64,000 bases of DNA, from assembly GCA_044229845.1 (NCBI GenBank), contig JBGASG010000004.1, positions 256,001 to 320,000 of the forward strand, in the 5' to 3' direction. The notes beneath the pieces were generated by a model that saw nothing but the letters and a program-made list of their open reading frames with translations, did no database searches and had not been told where the DNA came from. Below are positions 52,437 through 54,713 of the stretch, piece by piece. Within the stretch, counting starts at the first letter, position 1. Each line of letters opens with the position of its first letter. Source of the DNA: Candidatus Obscuribacteraceae bacterium. Its GTDB lineage: Bacteria > Cyanobacteriota > Vampirovibrionia > Obscuribacterales > Obscuribacteraceae. The position numbers and the translations under genes are program-made.

Positions 52437-53300
52437 ATGGCCAAGCGATCTATCCTCGTCACCGGGTCCGGTGGCATGCTCGGACAAGCACTCACATCGT
52501 GCCTGGAAAGCAAAGGTCACAGCGTGCGCGGCATGCCGAGGGAAGAGCTTGATGTCACAAACTTCGAGCAGGTCAATCGGCTGATCAAAGAAGCGCAGCC
52601 GGATCTGGTCATCCATCCGGCTGCGTACACGCGCGTCGACCAGGCTGAATCGGAAGCCGACCTGGCCTTCCTGATCAACGGTTATGGCACCGAAAACATT
52701 GCCGTCACCTGCAATAACCTGCACATCCCGATGATGTACTTGAGCACCGACTATGTGTTCGACGGCGTCCAGGATCGCCCCTATCAACCCTGGGACGACA
52801 CTCGCCCCATCTCAATCTACGGCAAGTCCAAACTAGCCGGAGAGCGTGCCGTCGCGCGACACCTGAAGCGTTTCTACATCGTGCGCACCAGCTGGCTGTA
52901 CGGCCCGCACGGACGCAACTTTGTAGAAACGATTCTGCAAATGGCCAAAGAACGCGATGTGCTTCGTGTAGTTTCGGATCAGTGGGGTTCGCCCACCTGC
53001 ACTCTCACTCTGTCGGAAGTGATCGCCGAACTGATCGAGCACGATCGCTGGGGCACCTACCACGCCACCGACGGTGGTGTCACTAACTGGTACGAATTCG
53101 CCAAAGAAATTCTCAAAGACCAGAACAATGTCGAAGTGGTGCCCATCGAAACACGCGAATTTCCGCGCCCGGCTACCCGTCCGAAATACTCCGTGCTCGA
53201 CAAGACAACACTCATCCACACGATCGGTCGCGAGCCGGTACCGTGGCAGCAGGCACTCGATGAATATCTCGAGTTGCGCACCGCCAGACCGACGGTCTAA
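52437..53300 (+). CDS. rfbD: dTDP-4-dehydrorhamnose reductase
   Basis: GSGGMLG, AAYT.VDQAE, STDYVFDG, YGKSK and RTSWLYG motifs. Confidence 0.96.
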   Translation: MAKRSILVTGSGGMLGQALTSCLESKGHSVRGMPREELDVTNFEQVNRLIKEAQPDLVIHPAAYTRVDQAESEADLAFLINGYGTENIAVTCNNLHIPMMYLSTDYVFDGVQDRPYQPWDDTRPISIYGKSKLAGERAVARHLKRFYIVRTSWLYGPHGRNFVETILQMAKERDVLRVVSDQWGSPTCTLTLSEVIAELIEHDRWGTYHATDGGVTNWYEFAKEILKDQNNVEVVPIETREFPRPATRPKYSVLDKTTLIHTIGREPVPWQQALDEYLELRTARPTV

Positions 53301-53429
53301 CTATTTGGTTTTGGCGCCCTGAGTTTTTACGGACACGACAATCACAGACTTAGCTGCTGCGGGAGGTTTCTTCTCTTTCGTGCACGCCGGCTGATTCTTG
53401 CCGCCCACGGCATCTAGTCATAGATGGCG

Positions 53430-53627
53430 AGTTGGACGGACACTTCGAGTTTTGACCTCCTCCCTTTCCTCTCGGAAGGGGATTCCGGCTGGGAGTCCTG
53501 ATGGACGCCGACACGGTGGGTTCCTGCTTCATCAAAGCTGCCAGAATCTCTTCTGGTCTTGCGTCCTCTCCACAGGCTCATCGGGCGAGCCCCGCCCTGT
53601 TAGTCCCAAGCTTGTTTGCCAGGACCA
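53430..53627 (-). ncRNA. TnpB-type omega/reRNA scaffold (IS200/IS605 right end) plus putative guide, with no tnpB gene
   Basis: Minus strand reads AGGGCGGGGCTCGCCCG..GCCTGTGGAGAG..GAAGCAGGAACC..GGAATCCCCTTCCGAGAGGAAAGGGAGGAGGTCAA. This matches the recalled IS605/IS1341 3' end, with TCAA ending at 53452 and two stems capped by GAGA tetraloops. Boundaries approximate. Confidence 0.75.
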
Positions 53628-53633
53628 TACGTA

Positions 53634-53662
53634 TGTATACCACATATATTCCGTGCATGCAA
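53634..53662 (-). promoter_or_regulatory. Putative sigma70 promoter for the omega-like RNA
   Basis: TTGCAT (53662-53657), N17, TATACA (53639-53634), with an extended -10 TG. Confidence 0.55.
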
Positions 53663-53906
53663 CATCAGCCGTGCATCTGCCGGCTTCGCCGGCGGTGCCA
53701 ACTTCGGACCGCCCAGGCTGGGTCATCAGAGCAGTTTTTCAAGTATTTCGAGCTGGCCGCCTATGCCACCCGGGTTAAAAAAGACTGACTTTGATGTCAT
53801 GAGGCACTTCCAATGCGGTTCTCTGCCGATTCAGCTTCAAGATAGCTGGACTGGCAGCCGGTCTCACTGATATTCTTACCAACCGATAGACCGGAAACGA
53901 GCCTCA

Positions 53907-54473
53907 ATGCTGCAGCAAAAGATGAAATCCCTGACAAAAGACGCCATCGGTACGGAGTTCTCCAACGACATCTCCGTCCAGGACTACACTAAAAAGCCCA
54001 CAATCGAAGGTGTGCAGTTAATCAATCTGCAAATGTTCGTCGACGATGGCGGTTCGCTGGCGGAGATTGTCCGCTTCGACGACGACGGCTCGCTGCAAGT
54101 GATCCCCGAGTTCAAGGTCAAGCAATCGACCTTCTCGATGATGTTGCCGGGGACAATCAAAGCTTTCCACCTGCACTTCAACCAGGAAGATGTCTGGTTC
54201 ATCCTGCCGACCAGCCGCGTGCTGATCGGTCTTTTCGATGCCCGCAAAGACTCACCCACCTACCGCAACTCGATGCGCTTCGTGATGGGTGCCGGGCGCG
54301 CCCAGATTCTCTATCTGCCGCGCGGAGTCGCTCATGGTCTGGCTAACCCGTGGACCGAACCGGCTCACATGATTTACTTCGTCAACCAGTGCTTCAATGC
54401 TGACGATCCCGATGAGCGCCGCCTCCCCTGGGACGCTCTGGGCGCCGATTTCTGGGAAATCCGCAAGGGCTAA
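53907..54473 (+). CDS. rfbC: dTDP-4-dehydrorhamnose 3,5-epimerase family cupin
   Basis: IEGV, DDGG...E, PGTIKAFHLH..Q.D, DARKDSPT and PRGVAHG motifs. Confidence 0.88.
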   Translation: MLQQKMKSLTKDAIGTEFSNDISVQDYTKKPTIEGVQLINLQMFVDDGGSLAEIVRFDDDGSLQVIPEFKVKQSTFSMMLPGTIKAFHLHFNQEDVWFILPTSRVLIGLFDARKDSPTYRNSMRFVMGAGRAQILYLPRGVAHGLANPWTEPAHMIYFVNQCFNADDPDERRLPWDALGADFWEIRKG

Positions 54474-54661
54474 ACCGATTCATCGTTAGGCTTAGCTGCC
54501 TTACCGGCACGACGAAGTTCTTCAGCAAACTTCTGCAAGTCCATCAACTTTCGGAATCGCTGCTCCACAGTGAGCTTCAAATTTTCCCGCAAGAGAGTAA
54601 TATCGACGTCCTTTTTGTAGAACTCAATTACCGGGTCGATTTCGTGATTTTGCTCTTTCAA
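54470..54661 (-). CDS. Small hypothetical protein of the type usually paired with nucleotidyltransferase genes
   Basis: DPVIEFYKKDVDITLLRENLKLTVEQR; AGAGGA RBS. Confidence 0.65.
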   Translation of the reverse strand: MKEQNHEIDPVIEFYKKDVDITLLRENLKLTVEQRFRKLMDLQKFAEELRRAGKAAKPNDESV

Positions 54662-54713
54662 GGTTTATCCTCTGTCCTAATTATGACAGGAGAAACTTAG
54701 ATGAGACCGAGCC

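Follow-up and report, generated by a model that had tools for sequence, protein, structure and literature searches.

Structure of the locus

The window analysed here is a 64,000-nt stretch of the genome of a Candidatus Obscuribacteraceae bacterium (G000 below; positions are those of the window). Between rmlD and an rmlC-like epimerase gene, and antisense to this rml cluster, it carries a gene-less element of the IS605 type with a promoter and a TnpB-type omegaRNA scaffold of its own (Table 1). Its length is put at ~270 bp (53452-53721), the left boundary at 53721 being set by the adjoining ATGAC motif, and the second hairpin is all that is left of its left end. GAAT and TCAA at the other end agree with the rule for IS608 right ends.

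Table 1. Features of the element and its surroundings in the window
Feature	Position	Strand	Basis or remark
rmlD	52437..53300	+	host gene upstream; Pfam RmlD_sub_bind
Predicted guide (host flank)	53432..53451	-	differs at every copy
IS605 right end: GAAT, subterminal hairpin, terminal TCAA	53452..53486	-	homology of the copies stops exactly at TCAA
OmegaRNA scaffold with 5' hairpin at 53602-53626, tnpB-tail-derived stems and right-end hairpin	53452..53628	-	covariance model R1, covariation
Predicted LexA (SOS) box YATAC-N4-GTATR, overlapping -10 and start site	53626..53639		motif shared with the regions upstream of lexA, ssb and dnaE2
Sigma-70-like promoter: TTGCAT, 17 nt, TG-extended TATACA	53634..53662	-	-35, TG and -10 columns conserved; geometry as in the lexA promoter
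Second left-end hairpin	53679..53698	-	common to full IS605 elements and sister copies
Decayed first left-end hairpin, left-end DNA guide tetramer lost	53699..53721	-	tetramer search: none here
Probable target motif ATGAC	53722..53726	-	analogy with exact empty sites of sister copies, ending TTGAC or CTGAC; target-adjacent motif (TAM) of the family NTGAC
rmlC-like epimerase	53907..54473	+	host gene downstream; Pfam dTDP_sugar_isom

A first-pass annotation, made from the sequence alone, had described this locus as a stand-alone guide RNA gene. All motifs that it listed lie where it placed them on the minus strand (53405-53662), including the promoter hexamers (-35-like at 53662-53657 and -10-like at 53639-53634, with a 17-nt spacer), the right end finishing in TCAA at 53452 and a hairpin in the flank (53411-53426). 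The translated tail RAGLAR*ACGE is also present, and a real TnpB found by the same DNA motif reads RAGLARLACGE. As the annotation had stated, there is no tnpB here, TBLASTN with the TnpB of the same genome giving no match on the contig. It had overlooked the left-end remnant and the palindrome over the -10 (Table 1).

The scaffold family and its mobility

Ten scaffold copies were found in G000 by BLAST, nhmmer and a covariance model: three full IS605 elements that carry tnpA together with tnpB (403 aa), one tnpB-only copy with a frameshift near its start, one deletion derivative of a full IS605 element, and five copies without tnpB, which have in common a left-end hairpin, the promoter, the 5' hairpin and the scaffold. 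Four of the ten model matches lie at tnpB 3' ends, which bears out the identification of the scaffold as a TnpB-type omegaRNA. The tnpB-less copies are 220-294 bp non-autonomous IS605 derivatives composed of a left end, the promoter, the omegaRNA scaffold and a right end terminating in TCAA. Homology among the copies breaks off exactly at TCAA, so that each has a guide of its own; further copies with other guides, for which the annotation had proposed a search, do exist in the genome. The tnpB-only copy (G000:C14:119927-121342) is frameshifted near its 5' end; two copies in G001, a genome of the same genus, are shifted elsewhere, possibly by assembly errors. The deletion derivative (G000:C1:561996-562319) lies upstream of dnaE2, and a full element with the same flank is found at G121:C243.

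Mobility was seen directly at the sister copies. G001 is empty at three of the four sister sites, those of C7, C18 and C3 (elements of 294, 277 and 220 bp, respectively), and the empty-site joins are exact, following TTGAC, TTGAC and CTGAC, without duplication; the fourth site, C13, is rearranged in G001. The three intact copies encoding both TnpB and TnpA have TTGAC or GTGAC at their left ends, and the tnpB-less copies of G000 use TGAC as these elements do. Neither tnpA nor tnpB is contained in the tnpB-less elements, tnpA being available in trans in G000. Among 31 left ends examined with a script that looked only for motifs ending in TAC or GAC, 18 gave both the left-end guide and the target motif, and the two covary (CAAG with TGAC in 8, AAAG with TTAC in 8, other combinations in 2), as expected from IS608-type pairing. 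A left-end pattern search allowing one mismatch returned mostly noise.

Several observations concern individual sister copies. The C7 copy (G000:C7:43151-43444, L127) lies in opposite orientation to addB at the 5' end of this gene, for which an ATG is provided by the initial bases of the element's left end. In the left ends of this copy and of G124:C66, which belong to two genera, one long near-perfect palindrome stands in place of the DNA guide. The C3 copy has lost 70 nt of the scaffold and kept the promoter palindrome. Mismatches in the guide seed at the empty alleles were considered as an escape from cutting and rejected: they were seen at one of three sites only (C7, 3/12 vs 5/360, p 0.0013; not C18 or C3), and those of C7 were not counted because the loss of coding constraint on addB explains them too.

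At the window locus itself, the element is absent from all 28 orthologous rmlD-rmlC junctions in 28 other genomes, where rmlD and rmlC are adjacent, with a gap of 33-250 bp in 25 of them; the locus is thus not conserved. The window copy is present in G001, within a tract of at least 17.6 kb that is 99.94% identical to G000, and because of this identity we rejected the G001 copy as independent evidence of conservation. A 235-bp stretch after rmlC (54476-54710) is absent from G001.

The annotation had set a left end within 53600-53900 together with an empty site in relatives as the finding that would mark a simple non-autonomous element. The left-end remnant is present in this interval and three sister copies have exact empty sites; for the window copy no empty site was found. 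The window locus is a non-autonomous mobile element and not a fixed, domesticated guide gene or the gene of a TldR-like regulator.

Distribution and origin of the family

The scaffold model matched 16 of the 104 genomes of the family. Outside G000 and G001, 24 loci were examined, 12 with tnpB, 11 without (in 8 genomes of 4 genera) and 1 false; a match in G092, lying inside a coding sequence, was dropped. A DNA search of 61 relatives returned only G001 and one weak match, and a class-wide search with the model added only tnpB-bearing matches, in one other family. A metagenome scan seeded with the box yielded at least 119 stretches, with DNA for 80, and the model gave a score in only 12 of 85 sources; the scan served the analysis of structure and ends and was kept out of the box counts.

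Seven of 30 tnpB loci have the same left end and promoter, with a box of 8-9/10 located ~61-66 nt before the start, and all seven lack tnpA; of the other tnpB loci, 13 linked to tnpA and 10 others score 7 or less for the box. The tnpB-less elements most likely descend from such tnpB-only (IS1341-type) parents by loss of tnpB. A second, shorter tnpB-less subfamily with another parent is represented by L156 (G108:C91) and L138 (G061:C138), in which the box or its right half precedes the scaffold.

The promoter and the predicted LexA box

A strict sigma-70 scan found no site at the window promoter, since its -10 has no T at position 6. The hexamers are nevertheless conserved among homologues and the spacer is not, in agreement with the annotated promoter. 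The palindrome ATAC-N4-GTAT covers the -10 and the start site in all five tnpB-less copies of G000. The ATG after the -10 was considered as an old tnpB start and rejected: GTATG is the half-site of the box, because the tnpB start in the parents lies 61-66 nt past the box. At the start of the RNA (53628-53578, minus strand) there is a frame of 15-16 codons from ATG to TGA, open in three of four full-length copies and without conserved residues.

The same dyad was found de novo, without using the elements, upstream of lexA in every one of 28 other genomes of the family (next dyad 9/28; far control 0/25), with the same -35/17/-10 geometry as in the element promoter. The perfect 14-mer YATAC-N4-GTATR lies upstream of ssb in 24 of 27 cases (vs 2/1350 shuffles) and upstream of dnaE2 in 13 of 28, or 19 of 28 at 9/10 or better (vs 4/1400 shuffles). 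G000 (5.16 Mb) contains 15 perfect sites, that of the window among them: four are within tnpB-less elements, seven precede lexA, dnaE2, an imuA/imuB-like pair, ssb, an rmuC-like gene, nrdB and rpsB, and no gene was assigned to the remaining four. The LexA protein retains the autocleavage residues Ala-Gly, Ser and Lys.

Described LexA boxes include the cyanobacterial AGTACWNWTGTACT and the Bacillus CGAAC-N4-GTTCG (PMC3091678, in the text available). The predicted box shares with AGTACWNWTGTACT the 14-bp palindrome with a TAC-N4-GTA core and lexA and ssb as targets, and differs from both in its outer bases, YA...TR, and in that recA is not a target in this lineage; according to the same source, recA is a common but not universal member of cyanobacterial LexA regulons. 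imuA-imuB-dnaE2 and ssb are documented SOS members (PMC8565304, in the part available). In view of the sites at lexA, ssb and dnaE2, the autocleavage residues, the cyanobacterial-like core and these documented members, YATAC-N4-GTATR is most likely the LexA box of this lineage, and the guide RNA of the window would then probably be switched on upon DNA damage. At the recA loci (L082-L111) the commonest upstream dyad is instead GTTG-N5-CAAC (12/27).

Among 16 genome-derived tnpB-less elements from nine genomes the box is perfect in 11, 9/10 in three and 8/10 in two; without G115:C121, which may be an imuA promoter, it is perfect in 10 of 15. The columns of the left half-site are conserved in 15-16 of the 16 elements and most columns of the 17-nt spacer in 6-10, the copies compared being 56-91% identical.

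Element-like promoters with the box also stand before host genes. Orthologous imuA-like genes lie behind such a promoter at L150 (G115:C121), L216 and L261; with the scaffold model, the leader in G115 reaches 55.8 bits, and the leaders of L216 and L261 do not score. These imuA promoters possibly represent exaptation of the element promoter, or its source. At L212:1401-1547, a truncated element (left end, promoter, box and half of the scaffold) is located directly upstream of sbcC.

The scaffold as an RNA

Single-sequence folding of the window scaffold was not significant (z -1.28 and -1.52). In the covariance-model check proposed by the annotation, Rfam matches at the window locus stayed below the gathering threshold (HgcC, which we take to be an omegaRNA class, with 26.5 of 50 bits and E 0.002; RAGATH-18 with E 0.19), and the model built from homologues matched ten sites in the genome. 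With model R1, which was built partly from the window copy, the window scaffold scores 201.6 bits.

In an independent MAFFT alignment of 14 tnpB-less copies, helices other than the right-end hairpin were 98.4% paired and 7 of 27 pairs differed at both positions, values above those of shuffled and slid controls, although these covariation counts are inflated by relatedness and the pairing is partly inherited from the parent. The 5' hairpin covaries in the fitted alignment and was not recovered in the independent one. As TnpA requires only the end hairpins, the pairing of internal helices points to selection on the RNA. The annotation was right in that this is not random decay.

The region is partly covered in six RNA runs from three studies, and three runs were examined over the element. 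Contigs at 53433-53620 in one run and at 53389-53617 in another lie near the predicted RNA and end 7-10 nt short of its predicted start. They are a weak hint of scaffold expression.

Guide targets and TnpB partners

The annotation had proposed a guide acting on a target elsewhere, possibly with a nuclease-dead TldR-like partner. For the window guide, TGAC-linked seeds in the genome do not exceed 8 nt, control guides behaving alike, and viral sequences gave no match with or without the TAM. None of the ten guides has an above-chance target in the genome, save that of the unrelated C1 deletion derivative, which has a TTGAC-linked 16/20 match 197 bp away. The catalytic D-E-D is kept in all four tnpB genes of G000 and no further TnpB homologue was seen in this genome, which is 88% complete; as all four retain the catalytic residues, no TldR was found. 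At TldR loci the guide is accompanied by a dead nuclease, transposon ends are lacking, and the target is a conserved one in a promoter (10.1101/2023.11.30.569447, in the part available). The window family resembles them in the TnpB-type guide scaffold only, as it has transposon ends and neither a nuclease-dead TnpB next to the guide nor a conserved guide with a TAM-flanked promoter target. TnpB could act on the window scaffold in trans, as the annotation had suggested.

Interpretation and rival explanations

The explanation we favour, with some reserve, is that of a gene-less IS605 element, similar to palindrome-associated transposable elements (PATEs), whose guide RNA would be SOS-inducible and used in trans by the TnpB of the host on empty sites. 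It builds on the family anatomy, the mobility of the sister copies, the covariation at the RNA level, a promoter palindrome identical to the motif upstream of SOS genes, and intact tnpA and tnpB genes at other sites of the genome, whose elements share the target motif. A tnpB-only parent would have lost tnpB and kept its left end, tnpB promoter, omegaRNA scaffold and right end. LexA would repress the element promoter; on DNA damage an RNA of ~195 nt would be made, load onto TnpB from the full IS605 copies and guide it to the TAM plus flank, that is, the empty allele, which would be cut. Repair of the cut with the filled copy as template, a step known from the published retention model (Meers et al., 10.1101/2023.03.14.532601; PMC8612924; both as far as available), would retain or spread the element at a time of active recombination, with single-stranded DNA favouring excision. 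Such timing would fit the stimulation of IS605 transposition by damage in Deinococcus, where induction is tied to genome fragmentation yielding single-stranded DNA (PMC2806898, in the part available).

A number of results weigh against this explanation. No empty allele was found for the window copy; the empty-site joint was not seen in DNA run X14 either, which does not prove its absence, and the occurrence of the copy in G001 falls within the near-identical tract. The left-end guide tetramer was not found in the window copy, C7, C18 or C13, that is, in four of the five G000 copies, which lessens the need for protection against excision. The tnpB genes of G000 itself have no box, and upstream of recA no perfect site was found in 27 cases and one at 9/10, like shuffles. 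The left half-site of the box falls on the -10, and its conservation could partly reflect promoter selection; model R1 contained the right half-site, so that only the left half-site and the -35 are independent of the selection of the elements. The RNA contigs are unstranded, of depth below 10 and without a silent control, with the rml genes partly covered too, and the third run examined (X19) had no cover over the element, which does not prove absence.

The loss of the left-end guide in four of five copies is unexplained by simple retention and fits homing or decay. With this tetramer lost, the window copy may no longer be excisable, and it therefore probably persists or spreads by homing rather than by TnpA excision. 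More tentatively, and with slightly less confidence than would make it our expectation, the SOS repressor of the host may gate RNA-guided homing, the guide and, in tnpB-only parents, the nuclease being under LexA. Empty sites would then be cut only with recombination repair switched on, copies without a left end would be pure damage-triggered gene drives, and the promoter would at times have been exchanged with repair genes (imuA, sbcC).

Decay leads to a less probable account, which we nonetheless take seriously, of a mobile PATE that inherited promoter and box from an IS1341-type parent. Repression would keep a stray promoter and guide harmless, SOS induction would be incidental and the window copy would be a dying relic. 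The same promoter with a weaker box in the parents, the decayed left end in four of five copies and the box kept in C3 despite the loss of scaffold all agree with this; however, the -35, TG and -10 are kept along with the box, whereas loss of the promoter would be a simpler way of silencing, and the internal helices still pair. It seems improbable that the element serves as a portable SOS promoter that drives or interferes with its neighbours, here antisense to the rml cluster, or as a decoy titrating TnpB during damage. The scaffold-bearing leader with the element promoter before the imuA-like gene in G115, similar promoters before two orthologues, the truncated copy abutting sbcC and the position of C7 at the addB start are in its favour, but the neighbours of most copies are unrelated, the orthologous rml junctions all lack the element, and the L216 and L261 leaders give no score with the model. 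A domesticated guide gene that has a fixed target and serves a TldR-like repressor or defence is largely refuted and to our mind very improbable. A promoter and a structured scaffold without tnpB would suit it and a partner could be unassembled in an incomplete genome; yet the family is mobile with a different guide at each copy, the known tnpB genes are catalytically intact with no other homologue seen, the best TGAC-linked seed of 8 nt equals that of control guides with no viral match, and the locus is not conserved.

Relation to known systems and significance

Guide-bearing PATEs, standalone omegaRNAs and LexA control of insertion sequence transposases are already known. PATEs are gene-less IS200/IS605 elements that often encode omegaRNAs needing TnpB in trans (Meers et al., 10.1101/2023.03.14.532601); they and the window family are alike in having a left end, a right end and no protein, and differ in the conserved promoter overlapped by a predicted LexA box, a type of control not described for PATEs in the available part of that report. 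Standalone omegaRNAs are mobilised, effector-less and trans-acting, occur beside effector loci in the genome and have a role given as unknown in the available text (PMC10691335). The window family shares their mobilisation, the lack of an effector and a genome with effector loci, and suggests in addition that DNA damage is the condition of use and that the promoter originates from that of an IS1341-type tnpB. For ISDra2, an RNA from the tnpB 3' end and the right end with a flank-derived guide and a model of donor-joint cleavage have been described (PMC8612924, in part); the predicted window RNA is alike in origin and guide, but the ISDra2 RNA overlaps tnpB and that of the window is separate, with a predicted repressor site. 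ISCR transposases are LexA-repressed, the LexA box overlapping the promoter of this HUH-type mobile element (PMC13393415, as far as available). There the box controls the transposase, and in the window family it is predicted on the guide RNA and, in the parents, on tnpB.

What appears to be new is the predicted LexA box on a guide promoter. Neither an SOS box on the promoter of an omegaRNA or of tnpB nor host control of TnpB guides was found described in a literature search covering few subscription papers and no supplements, and literature listings on LexA in Melainabacteria contained neither this motif nor a LexA regulon for Obscuribacterales.

If LexA controls the guide promoter, the guide would appear once DNA is damaged and would protect the element at the time when excision and recombination are at their height. 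If homing is indeed gated by the SOS response, the break made by TnpB could itself feed the SOS signal. Further products of the analysis are a candidate LexA motif and regulon for Obscuribacterales and a candidate natural damage-inducible guide cassette.
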